A stretch of DNA of 64,000 nucleotides from an uncultured Spirochaetaceae bacterium. Lineage in GTDB: Bacteria; Spirochaetota; Spirochaetia; SZUA-6; RPPD01. Positions 38,508-55,450 of the stretch are shown here, one piece after another. Under the pieces are notes generated by a model. The model was not told the origin of the DNA, made no database searches, and saw only the letters and a program-made list of their open reading frames with translations. The first letter of the stretch is position 1. The number at the start of each line of letters is the position of its first letter. The DNA lies in NCBI GenBank assembly GCA_964634205.1, contig CAZWKE010000004.1, positions 26,663 to 90,662 of the forward strand, in the 5' to 3' direction. The position numbers were made by a program, and so were the translations under genes.

Positions 38508-39668
38508 ATGAAAAAAATTATTCTGTATGTATTTTTAGGTCTGGTTTTAATTACCGGCTGCAAAAGTACGGGTAACGGAACAGCGGCCGACGGTTCGGAT
38601 AATACGAACGTCTCTCCCCAAAACGAAAAGGCTTCCGATGTTGCCGAGATGCAGACTTATCTTGACAATGCCCGTAAAAAAATCGATCAACTTGCCGTTT
38701 CCGAAGGAATCAGCCAGTATGTTGCCGTGCTTGCCATTGAGAACAAGCTGAAAAATCCCTCCGCCAAGGCCCGTGAGCTGGCCAAGGCCGCCGAAACCGA
38801 GTTGACCAAAATCGCTTCCGCCCTGCGTCTTACCCCCGGTCCCGACTGGCTGGATGAGAATGACAACCAGATTACCGGCAGCACGATGAGTTTGGGTAAG
38901 GACAAAGCGTTGAACCCGGAGGTGTTGTTAACATACAACATGGGCGGGAGTATTGTTGTCAGCGGGGCACCGGTGGAGTTCGAGTTTACCAAGGGAACCG
39001 GGTTGATCGATAAAACCATAAAAACCAATGAGTACGGCCAGGCACTCAGCCCCATCGCCAGGGTCGGCAATGTGAAACAGGAAGTAGTGGTACGGGCAAC
39101 CTTGGTATTTTACGTTAAGGGTTTTCGCTACCGGTTTGAGTCGGTCAGCTGCAGTTTCATTTATGTGCCGCCGTCCAAACGCGCCACCATTATTGTTTAT
39201 GAAAGCGCACCCGATTATGTTTCCGACCATCCATTTGTTTTTGACGCGGCCTATAATTCTTTAAAGAAGATCGACTTCGATTTTACGCAGTATAACGGTG
39301 TACTGCTCGGTAAAAAATTCTTAAAGGTGTTCGGCGGCGATATCAATGCCATTAAGAAACTGGCCCTGGAACAGTCTGTGCCTTATCTGGTGATGGTATA
39401 CAACGATTGTTACCGGGTCAATAAAGCGCATCCTGATTTTGAAATCTATATTTCCGAGGTAAAGGCGACACTGCGCATCATACGAGTGGCGGACGGAAAG
39501 ATATTGTATGAAGCCGTAGCCTACGCGGACAAGGCCCACAATACCAACGGCCAGGGAGGTTCTCTGGAAAAGGCCAGGAACAACGGTTTCAGAAAGGCCG
39601 CGGCATTGCTTGAGAAGGAGTTGAAGGGACAGTTTCAGCAGATCAATACGGCGCTCCTGGGGGAGTAG
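38508..39668 (+). CDS. Hypothetical lipoprotein
   Basis: Start MKKIILYVFLGLVLITGC (lipobox). ~386 aa. No family recognised. Confidence 0.55.
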   Translation: MKKIILYVFLGLVLITGCKSTGNGTAADGSDNTNVSPQNEKASDVAEMQTYLDNARKKIDQLAVSEGISQYVAVLAIENKLKNPSAKARELAKAAETELTKIASALRLTPGPDWLDENDNQITGSTMSLGKDKALNPEVLLTYNMGGSIVVSGAPVEFEFTKGTGLIDKTIKTNEYGQALSPIARVGNVKQEVVVRATLVFYVKGFRYRFESVSCSFIYVPPSKRATIIVYESAPDYVSDHPFVFDAAYNSLKKIDFDFTQYNGVLLGKKFLKVFGGDINAIKKLALEQSVPYLVMVYNDCYRVNKAHPDFEIYISEVKATLRIIRVADGKILYEAVAYADKAHNTNGQGGSLEKARNNGFRKAAALLEKELKGQFQQINTALLGE

Positions 39669-39766
39669 CAGTTCAAAATCTCCAGTTTTTCTACTAAATT
39701 TGTAACTCTGAAAAAAAACATTTTCCCTCTTGCTATTAATGTAAATTTGTATTATCTATATTTTAT

Positions 39767-39786
39767 AATGTGAATTAAATCACATT
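39767..39786 (+). promoter_or_regulatory. Rex-box-like operator (aaTGTGAAttaaaTCACAtt), with a second TGTGAA half-site at 39828-39837 overlapping the rex start
   Basis: Close match to the Rex operator consensus TTGTGAA-N4-6-TTCACAA, immediately upstream of the rex gene. TATAAT at 39764-39769 overlaps the site. Confidence 0.6.
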
Positions 39787-39831
39787 AAATCTAAGAAAGG
39801 TTTTAAACAAAAAAATTATTCTTAATTTAAT

Positions 39832-40464
39832 GTGAAATGGGGGGATATTATTAACAAAAACAGTGTGGCCCGGCTGTCACAGTATAAAAACGCCCTGATA
39901 CGCCTGAAAAATCTGGGTTTTGTGAAGGTGTTTTCGGACAACCTTGCCGATGCGCTTGACATCCGTCCAACCCAGGTACGGAAGGATTTTTCGCTGTTTC
40001 AAATATCGGGAAACAAGCGCGGCGGGTACAACATTAATGAACTGCTCGCGAGTATCCTGAAATTGTTGGGGAAAACCGAGCTGCAGAATGTCGTTTTGAT
40101 CGGTTTGGGGCATATGGGAACGGCCCTGGCGAATTACACGGGGTTTAAAAAAGAGGGCATCCGGGTATATGCCTGTTTTGATATTGATCCGGCCAAGCAC
40201 AATGAAGCGGCCGCCCCCCCGGTATACCCGATGGAGCGGCTGCGGGAGATTGTGAAAAAGGGAGATATTAAAATCGCGATTATCGCTGTCCCGGATATCG
40301 CCGCACAGCATGTGGCGGATTTGCTGGTTGCTGCTGACATTAAAGGGGTGCTGAATTTCACCTCCATTCAGCTGCGAACGCCCGCGGACGTCCCGGTGCG
40401 TACGGTAAATCTCGTGCATGAGCTTGAGAATTTGTTTTATTTTGTGCATACGGAGGAGGAGTAG
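39832..40464 (+). CDS. rex: Redox-sensing transcriptional repressor Rex
   Basis: GTG start. N-terminal winged helix (…ARLSQYKNALIRLKNLGF…), Rossmann NADH-binding GLGHMGTAL, C-terminal …IKGVLNFT…. Confidence 0.85.
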   Translation: MKWGDIINKNSVARLSQYKNALIRLKNLGFVKVFSDNLADALDIRPTQVRKDFSLFQISGNKRGGYNINELLASILKLLGKTELQNVVLIGLGHMGTALANYTGFKKEGIRVYACFDIDPAKHNEAAAPPVYPMERLREIVKKGDIKIAIIAVPDIAAQHVADLLVAADIKGVLNFTSIQLRTPADVPVRTVNLVHELENLFYFVHTEEE

Positions 40465-40472
40465 AGAGAACA

Positions 40473-42332
40473 TTGAAAATACTGAAGATTCGCAGCTTGC
40501 GTGCAAGGCTTTTTATTTCATTTGTAATAATAATCATTATTATCAGCGGGGCCAGCTGCGGTCTGATATTTTATCTTGTGCAACACGATATAATCCTCCG
40601 GTCACAGGAACAGGCCAGGACCTATCTTGAAACGGTGGATCAGTTTTTCAGGGATGAGATCAATAAACTGCGCACGGTTTTTTTGATGTTGAAACTTCCT
40701 GTTGATACCCCGGAATTGAAACAAAATCTGGGTCTGGACTATTTTTTTGTCAAAACGGATGAGACATACAGCCCGAGTCCTTTTGTCAGGCTGGCAATGG
40801 CCGGTACCCCGGCCGGTGGATTCCGGATTATGAAAAGGGACGAGTTGTTGAGTTACGGAGAGGGGCTTTTACGTAAATCAGCCATTGAAATAAAGGATCC
40901 GCCGGGCGGGGATACGGCGGCACAAACAAAACTGGAATCCGCTATGGTGCTGGAATACGCGGTTCCGCTTCCCGGTGGTAAACCGCACCAAAGGAAGGTT
41001 CTGTACGGCGGGTATATCATCAACAGGGATTTTTCACTTATCGACCAATTGCATAAACTGGTCTTTGAAAACAAACTTTATGATGGAAAGCCGATCGGTA
41101 CCATAACGGTGTTTCTTCATGATATCCGGATTGCCACCAATGTGCTGACCGACAGCGGCCGGCGGGCAATCGGTACAAGGGTCTCCGGGGTGGTAAACGA
41201 CACCGTCCTGGTGAAAGGACAGACATGGATAGACAGGGCGTTTGTGGTGACCGACTGGTATCGTACGGCATACAAGCCCATAAAGGACTATAACGGCAAT
41301 ACTATCGGAATCCTTTATGTGGGCATTCTGGAAAGACCGTTCGTGGATATGATCATCCGGGTGTACGCGTTCGCGCTTGTAATTTTTGCCGGGGTAATCG
41401 GGATCGGTATGGTCCTTACCATTGTATTGTCCAGAATGATTTTTAAACCGCTTAAGGCAATGCTCGACGCCACAAGCGGAATCGCCAGGGGTGATTATAC
41501 CGAGACGGTCAGGCTCCATTCACCTATGAAGGAGTTTGATGTTTTTAATTCAGCGTTCAAGCGTATGGCCCGTGAACTGAACAAGCGGGAGCAGCGTCTG
41601 AAGTTTTCCGGAGAGAAACTGGTTTCATTAAACAAGAGTTACCTTGACCTGATTGGGTTTGTTTCCCATGAGCTTAAGGGGATTCTTGCTTCAACCATCT
41701 TGAATGCCTATACGGTACGGGACGGATTTTTGGGGATGGTAAATTTCAAACAACGCCGGGCCCTGGATTCCATCACCAGGAACCTGGACTACCTGGCGGA
41801 GACGGTAAAGAATTTTCTCAGCCTGAGTAGAATTGAAAAAGGCGAGCTTATTTTTCAGAAAACCGAGTGCCGTCTGAAAGAGGATGTTTTTGATCCGGTG
41901 GTTGAAACATATGAGAAGGCGGCTGCGGAAAAAGGCATTCATTTTGTCAACGGGATCACCCCCGAAACAGCGCTGTGCTCGGACCGCGACCTGCTGTTTA
42001 TTGTGGTCAATAACCTCATCGGGAACGCGGTTAAATACGGTCGTGACAACGGGACGATTATGCTTTCCTCGTATGAAACAAACGGGAAGATTACCGCTGA
42101 AATATTCAACGAAGGTGACCCGCTGTCGCCGGATGATATCGGGCGCTTGTTCGGCAAGTTCATCCGCCTGGAATCGGCCCGGAAGCGTCATATTAAAGGC
42201 ACGGGTCTGGGGCTTTTTATCACCAAGGAGATCGTGGAAAAACATGGTGGAAAAATCTGGTGTGAAAGCAGGGAAAACGGAAATTCATTTATTTTTACAT
42301 TGGAAAGGGGGGAGTATGCTCACTCCGCTTGA
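40473..42332 (+). CDS. Sensor histidine kinase with large extracytoplasmic (Cache-like) domain, HAMP, HisKA, HATPase_c
   Basis: 619 aa. TM1 at residues ~13-35, a ~250 aa periplasmic region, TM2 ~292-318, HAMP, H-box FVSHELKGILAS, N box NLIGNAVKYG, G box GTGLGLFITKEIVEKHGG. Confidence 0.85.
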   Translation: MKILKIRSLRARLFISFVIIIIIISGASCGLIFYLVQHDIILRSQEQARTYLETVDQFFRDEINKLRTVFLMLKLPVDTPELKQNLGLDYFFVKTDETYSPSPFVRLAMAGTPAGGFRIMKRDELLSYGEGLLRKSAIEIKDPPGGDTAAQTKLESAMVLEYAVPLPGGKPHQRKVLYGGYIINRDFSLIDQLHKLVFENKLYDGKPIGTITVFLHDIRIATNVLTDSGRRAIGTRVSGVVNDTVLVKGQTWIDRAFVVTDWYRTAYKPIKDYNGNTIGILYVGILERPFVDMIIRVYAFALVIFAGVIGIGMVLTIVLSRMIFKPLKAMLDATSGIARGDYTETVRLHSPMKEFDVFNSAFKRMARELNKREQRLKFSGEKLVSLNKSYLDLIGFVSHELKGILASTILNAYTVRDGFLGMVNFKQRRALDSITRNLDYLAETVKNFLSLSRIEKGELIFQKTECRLKEDVFDPVVETYEKAAAEKGIHFVNGITPETALCSDRDLLFIVVNNLIGNAVKYGRDNGTIMLSSYETNGKITAEIFNEGDPLSPDDIGRLFGKFIRLESARKRHIKGTGLGLFITKEIVEKHGGKIWCESRENGNSFIFTLERGEYAHSA

Positions 42333-42672
42333 ACAAATCAAAAAAATGCGGGCTTTGGCCATCAACCGCATCATCGGCAGCGGGTACCTGTCTACGAAGC
42401 GCGTTTATGTGGGTATGGCAACCTGTGAAATCGCCGCCGGTTCCAAGGAGGTGATGCAGGTGTTTCAAGAGGCAAAAAAGCAGGGGCTGGCTGATGTGTA
42501 CGTCAGTCAAAAAGGCTGCGCGGGCAGGTGCAACCTGGAGCCGACCGTGGAAATTGTGGAAGAAGGCAAGATCCCGGTCAAGTATGGTCTGATCGACAAA
42601 GAAAAGGCGCAGCAGATTATTGAGCGTCATCTTAAAAAAGGAGAAGTGATTACAGAATGGCTGATCAAGTAG
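42316..42672 (+). CDS. Small thioredoxin-like ferredoxin-fold protein (HndB-like hydrogenase subunit)
   Basis: 118 aa from an internal ATG overlapping the histidine-kinase stop. Cys residues at MATC…KGCAGRC. Position and size match HndB of Hnd-type [FeFe] hydrogenases. Confidence 0.6.
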   Translation: MLTPLEQIKKMRALAINRIIGSGYLSTKRVYVGMATCEIAAGSKEVMQVFQEAKKQGLADVYVSQKGCAGRCNLEPTVEIVEEGKIPVKYGLIDKEKAQQIIERHLKKGEVITEWLIK

Positions 42673-44483
42673 AAACTCGGACAATTAAAAACAGTACCGC
42701 GCAATACAATGTTATCCTCTGTTCCGGTCCCAGCTGCCTGCACCGGAAATCCAAAGAACTGCTGCAGGCGGTCAGGCGTGAGCTGGTACGTCACGGGTTG
42801 GAGCGGAAAACCGAGGTAATCCTTTCGGGCTGCCTGGGAATGTGTAAAAAGGGCCCGATAATGATTATCAATCCCGGGTATACGATTTACGGGGGAATCC
42901 ATGAGGAGCATATCGCGGAGATCATCGAGGCGCACCTGGTAAAGAACAACCCGGTGAGTGAAAAAATAATTAATGAGGACCATCTGTTTAATCGGTTCTA
43001 TCGCATTTTCGGTGATGTGGCGTTCTTCGGCAAGCAGATGCGCATCGCACTACGGAACTGCGGTATTCTCGATCCTGAAAAGATCGACGATTATCTTTCG
43101 GTAAGGGGGTATGAGGCGCTGGCCAAGGTGCTGACCTCTTATACACCGGGTCAGGTAATAGAGGAAATCGGAATCTCCGGTCTTAGGGGCCGGGGCGGCG
43201 CCGGATTCCCCACGGGATTAAAGTGGAAGCTGACCGCCGAAACCGACTCCGCTGAAAAATATGTAATCTGCAACGCCGACGAGGGGGACCCCGGCGCGTT
43301 TATGGACCGGAGTGCCATTGAAGGCGATCCGCATACGGTACTGGAAGGGATGCTTATCGGCGGATACGCGGTGGGGGCCGTAAAGGGCTTTATCTATATC
43401 CGGGCGGAGTATCCGCTTGCCATTCGCCGGCTGGAAAAGGCGATCGCCGAGGCGCGCAAGCATAATCTGCTGGGCAAAAACATCCTGGGAAGTGACTTCA
43501 GTTTTGATATTGAAATCCGTCTGGGTGCCGGTGCCTTTGTGTGCGGTGAGGAAACCGCGCTCATCCAATCGATTGAGGGCGGACGCGGAATGCCGCGACC
43601 ACGGCCCCCGTACCCGTCGGTAAGCGGGGTGTTCGGCAAGCCCACTTTAATCAATAATGTCGAGACCTGGGCCAATATTCCGGTGATCGTGCTCGACGGC
43701 GCGGACTGGTTTGCTTCCATCGGTACCGAAAAAAGTAAAGGTACCAAGGTGTTTGCCCTGGCCGGGAACGTGGTCAACACCGGGCTGATAGAGGTTCCCA
43801 TGGGGACAACCCTGCGGGAGATAATATTCGATATCGGCGGCGGTATCCCCGACGGAAAGAAGTTTAAAGCCGTACAGACCGGCGGGCCTTCAGGGGGGTG
43901 TCTGACCGAGGATTACCTGGATACACAAATCGATTATGATTCTTTGGCCAAGGCCGGTTCGATCATGGGCTCTGGTGGAATGATTGTCATGGATGAAGGC
44001 ACCTGCATGGTGAATGTCGCCAAGTTTTTCCTTGAGTTCACCCAAAACGAGTCCTGCGGAAAATGTACGCCGTGCCGTGAAGGAACCAAACGCATGCTGG
44101 AGATACTGACCCGTATCACCGCGGGAAAGGGCAGGCAGGGGGATATCGAACAACTGGAGCGCCTGGGAAATATGATACGCAAGGCCTCACTGTGCGGTTT
44201 GGGGCAGTCTGCGCCCAATCCGGTCTTAAGCACCATAAAAAACTTCAGGCATGAATATGAAGAGCATATCAACCGGAAGCACTGCCGGGCCACGGTTTGT
44301 CCGGCCATGGTGGTCTACGGTATTACCGATGACTGTATCGGCTGCGGCGCTTGTGTGCGCGTCTGTCCGGTCGGCGCTGTTTCCGGAATAAAAAAGAACA
44401 AACATACCATCGATCAGGAAGCATGCATTAAATGCGGAGAATGCTACTCGACCTGCCGCTTTAAGGCAATTACCCGTACTTAG
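42657..44483 (+). CDS. NADH-binding flavoprotein subunit of multimeric [FeFe] hydrogenase (NuoF-like; HndC/HydB type)
   Basis: 608 aa. N-terminal Trx-like 2Fe-2S (CSGPSC…GCLGMC). NuoF core (GRGGAGFPTGLKW; FMN and NAD(H) glycine-rich loops). Two C-terminal 4Fe-4S ferredoxin motifs (CIGCGACVRVCP, CIKCGECYSTC). Confidence 0.9.
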   Translation: MADQVETRTIKNSTAQYNVILCSGPSCLHRKSKELLQAVRRELVRHGLERKTEVILSGCLGMCKKGPIMIINPGYTIYGGIHEEHIAEIIEAHLVKNNPVSEKIINEDHLFNRFYRIFGDVAFFGKQMRIALRNCGILDPEKIDDYLSVRGYEALAKVLTSYTPGQVIEEIGISGLRGRGGAGFPTGLKWKLTAETDSAEKYVICNADEGDPGAFMDRSAIEGDPHTVLEGMLIGGYAVGAVKGFIYIRAEYPLAIRRLEKAIAEARKHNLLGKNILGSDFSFDIEIRLGAGAFVCGEETALIQSIEGGRGMPRPRPPYPSVSGVFGKPTLINNVETWANIPVIVLDGADWFASIGTEKSKGTKVFALAGNVVNTGLIEVPMGTTLREIIFDIGGGIPDGKKFKAVQTGGPSGGCLTEDYLDTQIDYDSLAKAGSIMGSGGMIVMDEGTCMVNVAKFFLEFTQNESCGKCTPCREGTKRMLEILTRITAGKGRQGDIEQLERLGNMIRKASLCGLGQSAPNPVLSTIKNFRHEYEEHINRKHCRATVCPAMVVYGITDDCIGCGACVRVCPVGAVSGIKKNKHTIDQEACIKCGECYSTCRFKAITRT

Positions 44484-44491
44484 GAGAGAAT

Positions 44492-46279
44492 ATGAAAGCA
44501 AAAAAAATGATTTCCATCTATATTAACGATGTCCAATACAAGGTGGCAGACGGCCAGACCATAATGCAGGCCGCGGACGCGCTTGGTTTTAAAATCCCAC
44601 GGCTCTGCTATCACCCCAAACTTTCGATCGAAGGCGCGTGTCGTGTATGTATCGTACAGGTGGAGGGCCAAAAAAATTATACGGCCTCCTGCTCCTTCCC
44701 GGTCTTTGAAAATATGCGGGTGCATACCAATACCAAGGAGCTTCGCCGTGCCCGCCGGGACATCGTTGAGCTGATCCTGGACAATCATCCCCGGGACTGT
44801 CATACCTGTGAGCGGGACGGTGTCTGTGAATTGCAGCGCCTGGCCTACGCCATGGGCATAAGAAACCGCCATTTCGAAGGAGAGCGCAAACACTATGAAA
44901 AGGACCTGTCCTCTCCGTCGGTTATCCGCGACCCGGATAAATGCATTCTGTGCGGAAGATGCGTGCGCCTCTGCTCGGAAATACAGAAGGTAAATGCGTT
45001 GGGGTATGCGCACCGCGGTTTTAAAACAGTGGTTATGCCCGCGTTTAACAAGCCCTTTTCCGAGAGTGTCTGTACCACCTGCGGTCAATGCATTAATGTC
45101 TGTCCCACGGCCTCTTTTGTGGAAAAGAATAATACGCAGGAACTCTTTGAAAAACTTGACGACCCGTCTTTGACAAAGATCGTACAGGTAGCGCCGTCCG
45201 TACGGGCCGCCATTGGTGAGGCCTTCGGCCTTGAGGCGGGAAAGGCGATGCACAAAGAGCTGGTGTCCGCCTTGAAAAAATTGGGATTCGATTATATCTT
45301 CGATACGCAGTTTGCCGCGGACCTGACCATTATGGAGGAGGCCAGTGAGCTGCTTGATCGTATACAGGGAAACGGCCGCCTGCCCATGATTACCTCATGT
45401 TCGAGCGCCTGGATAAAGTACCTGGAGCACTTCTATCCGCAGTTCCTCCCCAACCTGTCAACCTGTAAGTCGCCCATGTCCATGCTCGGGGCCCTGATAA
45501 AAAGCTATTTTGCCAAGAAGTTGGGATGTGATCCTTCTAGGCTGCTGAGTGTGGCGGTTATGTGCTGTACGGCAAAAAAGCATGAGGCAAACCGGCCGGA
45601 ACTGGCCGTGGAAGGGCTGCCCGCGGTTGATATGGTGGTCACCACCAGGGAGATCGCCTGGATGATCAAGTCTGCCGGCATCGATATGATAAGTGCCAAA
45701 GGCAGTGATTTTGACGCCCCATTAGGGCTCTCCTCGGGCGCGGGGGCGATCTTCGGGGCTACCGGAGGAGTAATGGAAGCGGCCATCAGGACCGCATATG
45801 AGCTTTATACCGGTGAGACGCTGCTTGACATCGAGCTGCAGTCCCTGCGCGGTTTTTCCGGGATAAAGGAAGCGTGTTTTACCATGGAAGACAAGGAGAT
45901 CCGTGTGGCGGTGGCCCACGGCCTGGGAAACGCGGGGAAACTGATGGAGATCATAAAAAAAGAACCCGACCGTTACCATTTTGTGGAGGTAATGGGCTGC
46001 CCGGGCGGTTGTATCGGCGGCGGCGGTCAACCCTATGCCACGGCCAATTCCATTCCATTGGATGAAGATTTCTTAAAAAAACGTGCCGAAGCCTTGTACG
46101 GCATCGACAGGGATAAAACCATCCGCAGAAGCCATGAGAACCCCGACGTGCAGCGGTTGTACAAGGAGTTTTTGGGAAGGCCCTTAAGTACGGTGTCGCA
46201 CGGCTTACTGCATACGTCATACAGTAAAAAACAGCCACAAGGTATTATTGCCGGGGGAGGAAATAATGAACAGCAATGA
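44492..46279 (+). CDS. hydA: [FeFe]-hydrogenase large subunit (HydA/HndD type, M3 architecture) with atypical H-cluster motifs
   Basis: 595 aa. Plant-type 2Fe-2S, a His-ligated 4Fe-4S (HPRDCHTCERDGVC), two 4Fe-4S ferredoxin motifs, then the H-domain. L3 is canonical (EVMGCPGGCIGGGGQP). L1 reads TSCSSAW (expected TSCCPxW) and L2 reads MCCTAKKHE (expected MPCxxKxxE). Confidence 0.85.
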   Translation: MKAKKMISIYINDVQYKVADGQTIMQAADALGFKIPRLCYHPKLSIEGACRVCIVQVEGQKNYTASCSFPVFENMRVHTNTKELRRARRDIVELILDNHPRDCHTCERDGVCELQRLAYAMGIRNRHFEGERKHYEKDLSSPSVIRDPDKCILCGRCVRLCSEIQKVNALGYAHRGFKTVVMPAFNKPFSESVCTTCGQCINVCPTASFVEKNNTQELFEKLDDPSLTKIVQVAPSVRAAIGEAFGLEAGKAMHKELVSALKKLGFDYIFDTQFAADLTIMEEASELLDRIQGNGRLPMITSCSSAWIKYLEHFYPQFLPNLSTCKSPMSMLGALIKSYFAKKLGCDPSRLLSVAVMCCTAKKHEANRPELAVEGLPAVDMVVTTREIAWMIKSAGIDMISAKGSDFDAPLGLSSGAGAIFGATGGVMEAAIRTAYELYTGETLLDIELQSLRGFSGIKEACFTMEDKEIRVAVAHGLGNAGKLMEIIKKEPDRYHFVEVMGCPGGCIGGGGQPYATANSIPLDEDFLKKRAEALYGIDRDKTIRRSHENPDVQRLYKEFLGRPLSTVSHGLLHTSYSKKQPQGIIAGGGNNEQQ

Positions 46280-46790
46280 TGATATCAAATTACAGCAGTT
46301 GAAAGAGTACATGCAGGGTTTTACCAAAGACCCACATGCGCAGTCAAATCTGATTACCGTATTGCACCGGGCCCAGGAACTTTACGGCTATCTGAAACAG
46401 GAGGTCATGGAAGAGATCGCGTATAGTCTTGCGGTCCCGACCGCCAAGATCTGGGGGGTGGCCAGTTTTTACCATTACTTTAACCTGTCACCGGTGGGTC
46501 GTCATGTTATTTCCGTCTGCATGGGCACCGCGTGTTATGTCAAAGGAGCGGGGCTTTTATTGGAACGGGTACGGCAGAAACTCAACATCGATGTCGGCGC
46601 GACCTCCGCAGACGGGCTTTTTACCCTGCAGGAAGCGCGTTGCCTGGGTGCCTGTGGACTGGCACCGGTGGTGATGATTGACGATCGTATTTACGGCAAA
46701 CTTTCAGCCGAAGGGGTTGCCGCGGTTCTGGATTCGTATGCAAACCGGTATAAAAATAATAAACAACAATCAGTAGTAAGGAGTAAATAG
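46266..46790 (+). CDS. NuoE-like 2Fe-2S subunit of [FeFe] hydrogenase (HndA/HydC type)
   Basis: Start at MNSNDD with a GGAGG RBS. Trx-like 2Fe-2S motifs CMGTACYVKG and CLGACGLAPV. Confidence 0.85.
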   Translation: MNSNDDIKLQQLKEYMQGFTKDPHAQSNLITVLHRAQELYGYLKQEVMEEIAYSLAVPTAKIWGVASFYHYFNLSPVGRHVISVCMGTACYVKGAGLLLERVRQKLNIDVGATSADGLFTLQEARCLGACGLAPVVMIDDRIYGKLSAEGVAAVLDSYANRYKNNKQQSVVRSK

Positions 46791-46796
46791 CTTAGT

Positions 46797-47192
46797 ATGG
46801 AAAAGAAAATACTAATAATCGACGATGATCCTGATTTTGCCGAGGCAATCATTACATTACTGGAAGCAAACGGTTATTCGGTGGTATACGCGGATAACGG
46901 AAGATCGGGCTTTGAACAGGCAAAAAGCAATCAGCCGGGGCTGATTCTGCTTGATGTCATGATGAGTGAGAAGACCGAAGGGTTTGACATCTCGCGAAAA
47001 CTGGCGGAGGAAAAGATTACTGCCGTAATCCCGGTAGTGCTGGTTACCGGAATCAGGAAGGAAATGAACCTTCCGTATACCCTTGAACCGGATAACGAAT
47101 GGCTGCCGGTAAAGGCGGTAATTGAAAAACCTGTAAAACCTACTGAGCTTTTGCGGGTGGTACAGGAACATATCGTGGTGGGAGAAAAGTAG
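46797..47192 (+). CDS. Stand-alone CheY-like response-regulator receiver protein
   Basis: 131 aa. ILIIDDD, phospho-Asp context LILLDVMM, conserved T (VVLVTG) and K (EKPVKP). No output domain. Confidence 0.85.
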   Translation: MEKKILIIDDDPDFAEAIITLLEANGYSVVYADNGRSGFEQAKSNQPGLILLDVMMSEKTEGFDISRKLAEEKITAVIPVVLVTGIRKEMNLPYTLEPDNEWLPVKAVIEKPVKPTELLRVVQEHIVVGEK

Positions 47193-47223: not shown

Positions 47224-48852
47224 TTATCCCGATCTTGCGGGATTCTCTTCATCAAGGAGTTCGCGCAGTTGTTCTTTCTCTATGTGGGGGCGGATAATCG
47301 TAAAGTTTTTCATAATGCCGGTAAATGTCTGCATATTCTTAAAGGAATCAAGCAGGTTGCCGCTAAACTCCTGATTTCTGTCCCCACCGATCACTTTAAT
47401 ATTACTGATAAGAAGCGGAGAATGCTGTTTGGCATCGTTTATAATCTCTGCAATGACCCCCTGAAATGAATAAAAGATATTGGTATAATCCTCTATTATT
47501 TTCATTGCCATGTTGTTGATGGTTTCGATTAGTTTATTCAGTGAATAGCCTACGGATTTTCCGCTTTTATAATCAACCAGGTATTTTCTAATTTTACTGA
47601 TACTTACCTCGCCGGGGGTGGTGAGGGTGTGTTCGAATTGAGAAATAGCTTCACGCGTTCCCTGGCATGAATGGAACAGGCGTATAAAACGCTCTTTAAA
47701 CTCCTTCTGCTCAAAAAAACCGTTTATCACTATTTTTTTTATAGTCTCCTGTATCTTTTTTTCAAAATGAAGCACGGTAAAACTCTTTACGATACTGAGG
47801 GGTTTAATATGATTAAAGGAATTGAACGACTCAGTCTGCAGCATTTTTGCCAGTTCATCTTCATATCCGTCGATTTCCAGTAGTTCCTTGCCGCTGAAAA
47901 GCTGATTTAAATCAGACAGGATTTCACGCTCGCTGCATTCACGTGTTACCTTCTCCACATCCATCTGGTAGCGTGATGAGAGCTTGCTTTTATAGACATC
48001 AAGAAATGTTTTATCGGCTTTATCGGTTTTGATGGTAAGGGCGGGATCCGCATTAATGGCCCGCAGTAACGCAAGCACAATATCGGGAGAGAGATAGGTT
48101 TTAAAAATGTTGTCCATAGAGGTTACAAGTTTGTTTATTTTTACCGCATCATTGGAGCTGATTTTCTTTTTCAGTCTTTTCAGCAGGAAGACCAGGTTTT
48201 TTTCTATACCGAGACTGAGGTTCAGATCGGCAAATACAAAATATAAATCCATGAGTTCCTGGTTTGCATGGTGTCCGATGCAGGCTGAAAAATTCGGTTT
48301 GTAACTGTTAGAGATTGTGACGTCCGGGTCAAAAAACATCAGCAGGCGGATAAAGTCATGCCGGCAAAGTGCGACAAACCGTTCCAGGGAACCGAATTCC
48401 GCATCGAAGTTGGCGAACTCGCTGCCGGAAAAGAGTTTCTGAAATTCGATAAACTCTTCATTCAGGATTTCGGTCTCGGTTTTCAGGGAAGCCGAATTAT
48501 ACAGGCGTTCCCTGATTTTATCATAACTGAAGTTTTGTTTTTGTAATTGTGTTTCTTCTTCCAGCCGTACTTCAATCAGGTAATCCTTGTACATTTCGGA
48601 AAGCCTGTCGTTCTCATTTAAGATTGTTTTATAGATCAGTTCCTTAAGGGGACGCAGATACTGTAAAAAGCTGAATAATGTGCGGGCGAACTGGGGCAAC
48701 AACTGCCCGGTAGATTGTTTGTAGAATATAAGTTTGTGCTGTTTGATAAGCTTATAAATTTGTTTTAAATCCCTTTTTCTATTATATTCCCGGCTGTTTC
48801 CCGCCAATAGTAATGAAAAGAACTCTTTAATGCGTTTAAGGATTTTAATCAT
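47224..48852 (-). CDS. Large hypothetical protein (542 aa), no recognisable domains, low GC
   Basis: Long uninterrupted ORF with protein-like composition and no antisense competitor. GC ~38-40% versus ~50-60% in neighbours. Confidence 0.5.
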   Translation of the reverse strand: MIKILKRIKEFFSLLLAGNSREYNRKRDLKQIYKLIKQHKLIFYKQSTGQLLPQFARTLFSFLQYLRPLKELIYKTILNENDRLSEMYKDYLIEVRLEEETQLQKQNFSYDKIRERLYNSASLKTETEILNEEFIEFQKLFSGSEFANFDAEFGSLERFVALCRHDFIRLLMFFDPDVTISNSYKPNFSACIGHHANQELMDLYFVFADLNLSLGIEKNLVFLLKRLKKKISSNDAVKINKLVTSMDNIFKTYLSPDIVLALLRAINADPALTIKTDKADKTFLDVYKSKLSSRYQMDVEKVTRECSEREILSDLNQLFSGKELLEIDGYEDELAKMLQTESFNSFNHIKPLSIVKSFTVLHFEKKIQETIKKIVINGFFEQKEFKERFIRLFHSCQGTREAISQFEHTLTTPGEVSISKIRKYLVDYKSGKSVGYSLNKLIETINNMAMKIIEDYTNIFYSFQGVIAEIINDAKQHSPLLISNIKVIGGDRNQEFSGNLLDSFKNMQTFTGIMKNFTIIRPHIEKEQLRELLDEENPARSG

Positions 48853-53900: not shown

Positions 53901-54968
53901 ATGATTGTTAAAGGAAAACACTATAAGACGGTATGGCTTGAGGGAACTACCGTCTATATTATTAATCAGCCCCTCCTGCCGCATAAATTTGAAATAATGG
54001 AATGTCCCGATCACCAGCGGACCGCCCGGGCGATTTCAAATATGGTTATCCGCGGGGCGGGGGCCATCGGCTCGGCGGCCGGGTACGGGCTGGCCCAGGC
54101 GGTATTGGAAGCTCCTGAAAATGATTTTGATGCCTACATCGAAACTGCTTTCGCGAACATAAAAAATACCCGCCCCACCGCCCAGAATTTATTTTACAGT
54201 ATCGAAAGAGTGTATCGGAAAGTAAAGGAAGCGGCCGATCCGCAACAGGCCAGAATTGCGGCGGTAAAAGAGGCTGAAGCCATTGCCCTGGAAGATATAA
54301 ATGCCTGTAAGCGAATCGGGGAGATAGGCGCGGAGCTTATTCGCGACGATGCAAAAATACTTACCCACTGCAATGCGGGGTGGCTGGCGTTTACCGATTG
54401 GGGAACCGCCCTCTCACCGATATATGTGGCGAAAAGGGCGAACAAAAAACTGTTTGTCTGGGTGGATGAAACACGTCCCCGTTTCCAGGGTGCCCGGCTG
54501 ACCGCGTGGGAGTTGAAAGAAGAAGGCGTCCCGTTTGCCGTTATTGCCGATAATGCGGCGGGTTTTTACATGCAAAGGGGTGAGGTGGACATGGTAATTG
54601 TGGGAAGCGATCGGATTGCCAAAAACGGTGATGTGGCCAATAAGATCGGCACTTATGAAAAGGCGGTTATGGCCCGGGAGAACAACATCCCCTTTTATGT
54701 GGCCGCACCAACCGCCACCATCGATTGGCACTGCGGTCATGGAGATGATATTCCCATCGAAGAAAGGAGCCAGGACGAGGTAACCTCCATTACCGGGCGG
54801 GATGAGGTAAACAGTCTGCATAGTGTTACCATCATTCCGGAAGGCGCCATCGCCAGAAATCCTGCTTTTGATGTAACTCCGGCAAAATATATTACGGGTA
54901 TCATAACCGAAAGAGGTATTGTAAAACCGCAGGAGCTTGAGAAATTAAAGACGTATGCCGAGGTGTGA
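53901..54968 (+). CDS. mtnA: S-methyl-5-thioribose-1-phosphate isomerase (eIF-2B alpha/beta/delta family)
   Basis: 355 aa. …RGAGAIGSAAGYG…, …HCNAGWLA…, …ARLTAWEL… and …VIVGSDRIAKNGDVANKIGTY… match the MtnA/eIF2B family. Confidence 0.75.
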   Translation: MIVKGKHYKTVWLEGTTVYIINQPLLPHKFEIMECPDHQRTARAISNMVIRGAGAIGSAAGYGLAQAVLEAPENDFDAYIETAFANIKNTRPTAQNLFYSIERVYRKVKEAADPQQARIAAVKEAEAIALEDINACKRIGEIGAELIRDDAKILTHCNAGWLAFTDWGTALSPIYVAKRANKKLFVWVDETRPRFQGARLTAWELKEEGVPFAVIADNAAGFYMQRGEVDMVIVGSDRIAKNGDVANKIGTYEKAVMARENNIPFYVAAPTATIDWHCGHGDDIPIEERSQDEVTSITGRDEVNSLHSVTIIPEGAIARNPAFDVTPAKYITGIITERGIVKPQELEKLKTYAEV

Positions 54969-55048
54969 TTTTCTTCACGGATAGACAACCTCCGAACCGC
55001 CATCGGGAAGTGAGTGCGGCGTTTAAATTTTTTGTTTGATTTGGATAT

Positions 55049-55450
55049 ATGAGACTGTCGTCAAAATGTGAATATGCATGTCTTGCGTTATTATATCTCT
55101 CCGAAAACTTCGGAAGCGGTGTGTCAAAAATAAGCGACATCGCCGAGAGTAAATCAATTCCCAGGAAATTTTTAGAGCAAATCCTGATTATCCTTAAACA
55201 AAGCGGTTACGTAAAAAGTAAAAAGGGTGCGTTGGGCGGGTACAAGCTTGCCAAAACCCCGGAAGAGATAAACCTTGCCGAGATTATCCGGCTGATGGAC
55301 GGTGCCCTGGCGCCTGTTGATTCGGTAAGTACGTATTTTTATGAACCTACTCCTATTGAACAGGAAAAAAAATTATTAAGCGTGTTTAAAAAAATCCGGG
55401 ATTATGTGTCGGATACATTGGAACATATACATTTTTCCGATCTGATTTAA
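55049..55450 (+). CDS. Rrf2-family transcriptional regulator
   Basis: 133 aa. N-terminal MRLSSKCEYACLALLYL plus a winged HTH. Lacks the 3-Cys Fe-S cluster ligands of IscR/NsrR. Confidence 0.8.
   Translation: MRLSSKCEYACLALLYLSENFGSGVSKISDIAESKSIPRKFLEQILIILKQSGYVKSKKGALGGYKLAKTPEEINLAEIIRLMDGALAPVDSVSTYFYEPTPIEQEKKLLSVFKKIRDYVSDTLEHIHFSDLI

Follow-up and report, generated by a model that had tools for sequence, protein, structure and literature searches.

A conserved predicted Rex operator upstream of a rex-headed [FeFe] hydrogenase gene cluster in an uncultured Spirochaetia bacterium

The operator of the redox-responsive repressor Rex is an 18-bp palindrome with the consensus TTGTGAAW4TTCACAA (PMC2883068), and the form TTGTGAANNNNTTCACAA is quoted in PMC6391272 and PMC5317091. 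The closest described relative of the system considered here is that of Caldithrix abyssi, in which genes Cabys_3675-3679 encode Rex and then a bifurcating [FeFe] hydrogenase, with a Rex site predicted upstream of the rex gene, and for which the authors infer that the operon is repressed when NADH/NAD+ is low (PMC5317091). In Caldicellulosiruptor bescii, Rex binds to the hyd and rex promoters, as assayed by electrophoretic mobility shift (PMC6391272). Rex control of [FeFe] hydrogenases has also been predicted in C. thermocellum, R. albus, and Solidesulfovibrio, and rex genes adjoining hydrogenase genes have been noted in Elusimicrobia. The rex operon of Streptomyces coelicolor and its operator, ROP, were reportedly described by Brekasis and Paget in 2003. 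Here we analyze a 64-kb stretch of DNA (hereafter the window) from an uncultured Spirochaetia bacterium, in which rex is the first gene of an [FeFe] hydrogenase cluster and is preceded by a palindrome, box 1 (39767..39786), that we predict to be a Rex operator.

The window cluster resembles that of C. abyssi in that rex heads the genes for a HydABC-type, NAD- and ferredoxin-dependent [FeFe] hydrogenase and in that a single near-consensus palindrome, cTGTGAATCAATTCACAt in C. abyssi, lies a few tens of base pairs upstream of rex; the repression at low NADH/NAD+ proposed for that operon would be expected here as well. The two differ in that the window cluster adds genes for a Cache-type sensor kinase, a small ferredoxin-like protein, and a receiver, and in that the window has a longer leader, a second half-site, an apparent ATT start codon, and an uncultured Spirochaetia host. 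Rex sites at [FeFe] hydrogenase genes and at rex also belong to the regulon of C. bescii and Caldicellulosiruptor saccharolyticus; in C. bescii, however, rex (Athe_0654) is transcribed apart from the hyd operon (Athe_1295-), each unit having its own operator, whereas here one operator would serve both. Like the Rex proteins of S. coelicolor, Staphylococcus aureus, and Bacillus subtilis, the window protein is predicted to be an NADH-responsive winged-helix/Rossmann repressor, and the autoregulation we propose for it has a parallel in S. coelicolor rex. In contrast, the targets of those three proteins are respiratory and fermentation genes rather than a rex-headed hydrogenase operon and, unlike window rex, S. 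aureus rex has a regulatory region of its own without a Rex box. The general understanding of Rex is unchanged by our finding; autoregulation, Rex control of [FeFe] hydrogenases, and the rex-first gene order are already in print, and what is new is the Spirochaetia lineage. It does provide a testable regulatory link in an uncultured Spirochaetia bacterium, whose NADH/NAD+ ratio would directly govern how much is made of an NADH-linked [FeFe] hydrogenase, probably an electron-confurcating one, and also of its own sensor. The rex-first hydrogenase cassette is widespread in metagenomes and helps to annotate the H2 metabolism of anaerobic communities. Potentially new as well are a phased two-site architecture found throughout the clade, an embedded kinase/receiver pair, and a non-AUG start codon.

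Box 1 (AATGTGAATTAAATCACATT; no strand assigned) lies about 65 bp upstream of rex, and its core palindrome, TGTGAATTAAATCACA at 39769-39784, is the sole exact TGTGA-N6-TCACA in the window. From dinucleotide shuffles 0.04 such matches were expected, and 4 of 100 shuffles contained any match. When one mismatch in the core was allowed, two occurrences were found relative to 1.29 expected, which is no enrichment; what makes box 1 significant is that its core matches exactly, that it scores highly with the matrix, and that it is conserved, not the one-mismatch criterion. To score Rex sites we used a symmetric matrix built from the sites of orthologous loci, with the window and its two closest relatives left out, whose training sites score from 7.6 to 29.6 bits with a median of 24.5; the scans covered the 64-kb window and loci of at most 16 kb. 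Box 1 scored 21.4 bits, inside the range of the training sites and under their median, a value reached by none of 200 simulated first-order Markov windows, and the next-best position in the window scored 10.6 bits. The matrix scan detected no further Rex-like site of at least 11 bits anywhere in the window, the interior of the operon included. Relative to the published consensus, box 1 matches at 11 of the 14 specified positions, including all 10 core positions, and has the W4 centre. A preliminary description of this DNA had named aaTGTGAAttaaaTCACAtt (39767-39786) as a near-consensus Rex box, and both the matrix, by which it is the top match in the window, and the conservation described below agree with a Rex-type operator. 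One one-mismatch core, TGTGATTTTCTTCACG at 54964-54979, had a low Rex-matrix score and fits chance; on one side of it a methylthioribose-1-phosphate-isomerase-like gene (53901-54968) comes to its end, and on the other is a gene for an Rrf2-like regulator (55049-55450).

For comparison we assembled 80 metagenomic loci and one genome locus whose Rex proteins are 53-79% identical to that of the window. The nearest species-level genome match, L001, is a Spirochaetaceae metagenome-assembled genome (MAG) with a Rex identity of 79%; L082 is the Spirochaetaceae MAG GCA_003818675.1; and NCBI MEJ2662878.1, a protein of a Spirochaetia MAG, falls in the 90%-identity cluster of the window Rex. Database relatives of the window Rex carried the labels Omnitrophota, Margulisbacteria, Endomicrobiales, and Spirochaetia. 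The layout of the window recurs in four further lineages, L001/L002, L082, L083, and L084, and in the near-identical L085; we refer to loci with this layout as Spirochaete-type. In the 300 bp upstream of rex, 75 of 79 loci matched the core at 8 or more of its 10 positions, 38 did so at 9 or more (per-position background 1.1e-4), and 18 had a perfect core. When all 5-mer dyads were counted with no motif assumed, in 60 non-redundant rex upstream regions relative to 86 controls, the most enriched were ATTGT-N10-ACAAT (42 regions vs. 1 control), TTGTG-N8-CACAA (41 vs. 1), TTGTT-N8-AACAA (31 vs. 0), and TGTGA-N6-TCACA (25 vs. 0), all of them registers of one palindrome, ATTGTGAA-N4-TTCACAAT. Box 1 itself was kept in L001/L002, L082, L083, L084, and L085, where the leader around it has diverged, and it scored between 16.7 and 23 bits in the Spirochaete-type relatives. 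These comparative data strongly back the predicted autoregulation of rex.

The product of the open reading frame (ORF) at 39832-40464 is Rex and, by family, would be released from DNA by NADH. Its winged helix matched Pfam PF06971 (5e-10; 39.8 bits relative to a cut-off of 27), its Rossmann NAD(H)-binding domain matched PF02629 (1.4e-16), and the whole protein exceeded the cut-off of the NCBIfam equivalog NF003996 (228.7 vs. 138 bits). Homology to the solved Rex structures 2vt2, 5zz5, 3keo, and 3ikt was nearly full-length, the match to 2vt2 (B. subtilis Rex) covering residues 7-200 with E = 4.7e-35, and structural matches came from Bacillus, Thermotoga, Streptococcus, Thermoanaerobacter, and Thermus. 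In 15 relatives the recognition-helix segment QVRKDFS was invariant, as were G91, G93, and G96 of the GxGxxG loop, which reads G-L-G-H-M-G at residues 91-96 of the 210-aa ORF.

Downstream of rex the cluster genes, through the receiver, lie on one strand, and they overlap or are separated by gaps of at most 8 nt. Since the window holds no other site of at least 11 bits and the genes are so tightly packed that no space is left for promoters between them, any Rex control of the hydrogenase would have to be exerted from box 1 alone. The same seven-gene order was found in L001, L004, L023, L024, L029, L031, L045, L054, L062, and L085. More generally, of 55 loci of sufficient length to be informative, 47 had a kinase, ferredoxin-like, or hydrogenase gene directly after rex and on its strand, and a divergent hyd operon was present in 3 more, a synteny that supports a functional rex-hydrogenase unit as predicted from the window. 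Rex does head the cluster, as was stated in the preliminary description; the suggestion made there that this is unusual does not fit these loci or the C. abyssi precedent (PMC5317091).

From these results we consider it probable that box 1 is a genuine, conserved Rex operator and that it provides a very probably NADH-responsive, autoregulated control of the rex-kinase-hydrogenase operon. The mechanism we propose is taken from the Rex family. Where NADH is low relative to NAD+, a Rex dimer would occupy the operator and block RNA polymerase; as NADH rises, Rex would close and come off the DNA, and the seven-gene unit, consisting of rex, the sensor kinase gene, the ferredoxin-like gene, hydB, hydA, hydC, and the receiver gene, would be transcribed. 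The NADH-dependent [FeFe] hydrogenase could then dispose of reducing equivalents as H2. As rex is the first gene, this control would include negative autoregulation. The autoregulation and the redox control of the downstream hydrogenase operon that had been suggested earlier thus find good computational support in the packed, rex-headed cluster, the conserved boxes, and the synteny. Several observations weigh on the other side. The second element downstream of box 1 fails as a full operator (-6.4 bits); there may be internal promoters within the coding sequence of the cluster; and the putative promoter hexamers of the window, TTGCTA and TATCTA, are weak, TATCTA matching the consensus at 3 of 6 positions and the pair being missed by a consensus promoter scan, so that the exact place of box 1 relative to +1 is uncertain. 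Moreover, TGTGA-N6-TCACA is shared with CRP-type sites, and the bases flanking the core, A before and T after, are closer to the CRP consensus than to that given for Rex in textbooks.

The promoter elements, box 1, the half-site, and the Shine-Dalgarno sequence all lie in a 180-bp gap 3' of a lipoprotein-like gene that ends at 39668. On the plus strand, a putative -35-like hexamer, TTGCTA (39730..39735), lies inside the conserved block cTCTTGCTATT and aligns with TTGATA in L001 and TTGACA in L082, L083, and L084. The putative -10-like hexamer, TATCTA (39753..39758, plus strand), follows 17 bp 3' of it; its counterparts in the relatives, 17-18 bp past the -35, are TATTAA in L001, TATTAT in L083, TAATAT in L082, and TACATT in L084. 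Box 1 follows the conserved -10-like hexamer by 8-10 bp in the window and begins 4-10 bp after it in the five lineages, the window hexamers being the weak ones noted above. The order in the Spirochaete-type loci is therefore -35, 17-18 bp, -10-like hexamer, box 1, diverged leader, TGTGAA half-site with Shine-Dalgarno, and start codon, and it would place box 1 at about, or adjoining, the point where transcription from the rex promoter presumably begins, which is where a repressor classically binds. The earlier report had drawn attention to a TATAAT overlapping box 1. This hexamer (39764..39769, plus strand) does overlap the left flank of box 1, but it is the upstream -35/-10 pair that is conserved: TATAAT occurs in the window and the near-identical L085 alone and is missing from L001, L082, L083, and L084, which ruled it out as the conserved -10, and no acceptable -35 was found in the window at 17-18 bp from it. 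It may be an alternative -10.

The second element, AATGTGAAAT (39829..39838; no strand assigned), is a Rex left half-site, a vestigial or auxiliary box 2, with TGTGAA at 39831-39836, and is separated from box 1 by an AT-rich spacer of 46 nt. Its left half scored +12.1 bits with the Rex matrix and its right half -18.5, and in the relatives the full site scored from -10.8 to -0.2 bits. It was ruled out as a full Rex box by the matrix, a one-base shift of register included, and the plural "operators" of the preliminary description therefore does not hold. Of the five lineages, four have a left half that is a near-perfect Rex half-site, and in L082 it scores 5.6 bits. The half-site keeps a distance of 61-62 bp to box 1 in each of the five Spirochaete-type loci, with the intervening sequence diverged; in the same five loci the right half of the element is the Shine-Dalgarno sequence. 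Most non-Spirochaete relatives have a full second box at the position of the half-site, for example TATTGTGAAAAATAGAACAATATG, ending 2-3 nt before the ATG. In 22 loci two sites reach 10 bits or more, and in 16 of these the spacing is 62-64 bp. Many of the loci L004-L081 have two Rex boxes at about -90 and -25 from the rex start, 62-64 bp apart, in the order box 1, 3-6 nt, TTGACA, 17 nt, -10, about 10 nt, box 2, and ATG, so that the boxes bracket the promoter; Spirochaete-lineage loci have both sites downstream of it, and the 61-62 bp spacing is retained. A third, degenerate half-site, TAATGTAAAT (39737-39746), in the promoter spacer, was dropped, as L001 does not conserve it.

From its two halves, the half-site is best read as the vestige of a former box 2 whose right half has turned into a Shine-Dalgarno sequence, and any auxiliary role that it has would be a weak one, aided by box 1 at a distance of 62 bp, or about six helical turns. 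An explanation that we would put at slightly less than an even chance is that the TGTGAAAT element was kept as a translation-initiation region, or 5' untranslated region, with Rex acting through box 1 alone. It accounts for the failure of the element as a full site, for the Shine-Dalgarno sequence in place of its right half in the five Spirochaete-type loci, and for the ribosome-binding site that the element directly adjoins. It accounts less well for a left half that remained a near-perfect Rex half-site in four lineages and for the fixed distance of the element from box 1; the spacing found in most of the other two-site loci, about six helical turns, suggests cooperative binding on the same face. 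On a further reading, the 61-64 bp phasing across the Rex clade would have two Rex dimers share one DNA face cooperatively, whether through a loop or as a tetramer, with even the degenerate half-site at 39829-39838 occupied and the NADH switch sharpened, and a weak ATT start would keep Rex low and tightly buffered. We regard this arrangement as unlikely, though not greatly so.

The position of the half-site relative to the start of rex depends on which start codon is used. The mechanical ORF begins with GTG at 39832, which is merely its first in-frame start-type codon. As a start this GTG was rejected: no Shine-Dalgarno sequence precedes it, in both of the closest relatives, L001 and L085, it runs into an in-frame TAG, and the homologues begin M-(x)-NKN. 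The preliminary description had placed the TGTGAA half-site on this GTG and had operators overlapping the rex start codon; the half-site is present, but the GTG is not the real start, and the second element is clear of the start. The rex coding sequence most likely runs from an ATT at 39850 to 40464 on the plus strand and encodes 204 aa, as judged by alignment with the relatives. The sequence ATT ATT AAC AAA AAC reads from 39847, and a Shine-Dalgarno-like GGGGGGA (39839..39845, plus strand) takes the place of the right half of box 2. The aligned Shine-Dalgarno sequences are AGGAGA in L001, AGGAG in L083, GGGG in L082, and GGGGGGA in L084, and the aligned starts, 4-9 nt past them, are ATG in L083 and L084, GTG in L082, ATA in L001, and ATT in the window and L085. 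Note that the NCBI annotation of the near-identical MEJ2662878.1 (204 aa, MNKNS...) begins at the ATT. Gene callers gave three N-termini for rex, corresponding to 210, 204, and 199 aa. The region of the non-canonical start spans 39847-39867 in the window, 7995-8018 in L001, and 101-123 in L085.

Between box 1 and the half-site lies an imperfect 56-nt palindrome (39780..39835, plus strand), a potential leader-RNA hairpin. Its outer arms, TCACATTAAAT (39780-39790) and ATTTAATGTGA (39825-39835), are complementary at 11 of 11 positions, so the extended inverted repeat that had been reported at 39779-39837 is exact in its arms, and the repeat goes on inward with arms at 39792-39804 and 39812-39824. 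L085 has most of this window palindrome, and it is absent from more distant relatives. An explanation of the repeat as a rex-leader RNA hairpin, acting in mRNA stabilisation or translational control, with the TGTGA/TCACA ends kept as the base of the stem, could coexist with Rex at box 1. In its favor, the predicted fold of the leader from 39776 to 39840 is an imperfect hairpin with 23 bp, at -17.2 kcal/mol (z = -5.7), and none of 200 shuffles folded as well; only 3 nt separate the stem from the Shine-Dalgarno sequence; and relatives have retained the spacing of the arms. In contrast, the leaders of L001, L082, L083, and L084 folded no better than their shuffles (z = -0.6, -0.8, -0.2, and -0.5, respectively), which ruled out a conserved leader-RNA hairpin. 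There were no compensatory changes; the one change that L001 has in an arm, A to T, disrupts a base pair and brings the site closer to TTGTGAA, the Rex consensus, and no Rfam family matched the leader. The conserved parts of the repeat are its two ends, the Rex half-sites. We therefore judge a role as a leader-RNA hairpin to be improbable. The hairpin is confined to this lineage and its function is uncertain, and the palindrome possibly arose by inverted duplication.

The flanks of box 1 bear on whether it is instead a site for a CRP/FNR-family regulator other than Rex. The classical CRP consensus has the arms AAATGTGA-N6-TCACATTT, and the E. coli CRP operator has the same TGTGA-N6-TCACA core with A/T-rich flanks as box 1. 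The AATGTGA-N6-TCACATT of box 1 provides both arms of that consensus, and, of the 14 positions of the textbook Rex consensus, 3 are mismatched in box 1, all in the bases flanking its core. CRP, however, belongs to a different protein family, no CRP homologue is tied to the rex loci, and the conserved neighbourhood has no CRP-like gene. The motif tracks with rex in dozens of unrelated lineages, where its consensus is the ATTGTGAA-N4-TTCACAAT palindrome, and the flank variant TAATGTGA...TCACATTA also occurs upstream of rex elsewhere, for example in L049. Since the motif accompanies rex in relatives, we judged a CRP-type site to be very unlikely. That box 1 is a chance palindrome is effectively refuted by its conservation in six related sequences whose adjacent leader diverged, and, although the intergenic region is AT-rich and the one-mismatch pattern is no more frequent than expected, the rarity of the exact match and a matrix score above all 200 simulations argue against chance as well.

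The predicted operon continues 8 nt past the rex stop codon, all on the plus strand, with a sensor histidine kinase gene (40473..42332; sCache_3, HisKA, and HATPase_c by Pfam), and a sensor kinase occupies the position after rex in 19 related loci. Next is a gene for a small thioredoxin-like, [2Fe-2S] ferredoxin-like protein (42316..42672), which starts at 42316, the position to which the L085 gene call corresponds, or at 42340, and had a weak NCBIfam 2Fe-2S ferredoxin match. This protein (about 110-118 aa) has no Pfam match and is always encoded directly before hydB; its identity is 74-89% in most of the related loci where it occurs (lower in L032, L049, and L074), exceeding that of Rex. HydB (42657..44483) is a NuoF-like FMN/NADH-binding subunit with the Pfam domains Complex1_51K, NADH_4Fe-4S, and Fer4. 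HydA (44492..46279), the [FeFe] hydrogenase catalytic subunit, contains Fe_hyd_lg_C and Fe_hyd_SSU, and scored 831.9 bits relative to a cut-off of 765 with NCBIfam NF040763, for NADH-dependent [FeFe] hydrogenase. HydC (46266..46790; start from the L085 gene call) is a NuoE-like [2Fe-2S] subunit (Pfam 2Fe-2S_thioredx, 3e-49). The components of a HydABC-type [FeFe] hydrogenase of the electron-bifurcating kind, an H-cluster HydA among them, are thus encoded together, and H2 turnover linked to both NADH and ferredoxin is predicted. The last gene of the cluster (46797..47192) encodes a stand-alone response-regulator receiver (Pfam Response_reg).

A Cache kinase and a receiver-only regulator without a DNA-binding output were kept in the rex-hydrogenase cassette across distant lineages: besides the window (40473-42332 and 46797-47192), the pair was present in L001, L004, L023, L024, L029, L031, L045, L054, L062, L082, L083, and L085. 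The literature searched yielded no description of this kinase/receiver pairing in a rex-hydrogenase cassette. Beyond the receiver gene, a gap of 31 bp, in which no obvious intrinsic terminator was seen, separates the cluster from a convergent gene on the minus strand (47224-48852) for a DUF5312 protein, a neighbour that was kept in the near-identical MAG (7481-7925 of L085). In L014, L016, L021, L027, L061, L067, L068, and L073, rex is followed by two hydC-hydB-type sets with hydA between them, which suggests that in this one subgroup two hydrogenase/NADH-oxidoreductase modules lie under one rex promoter.

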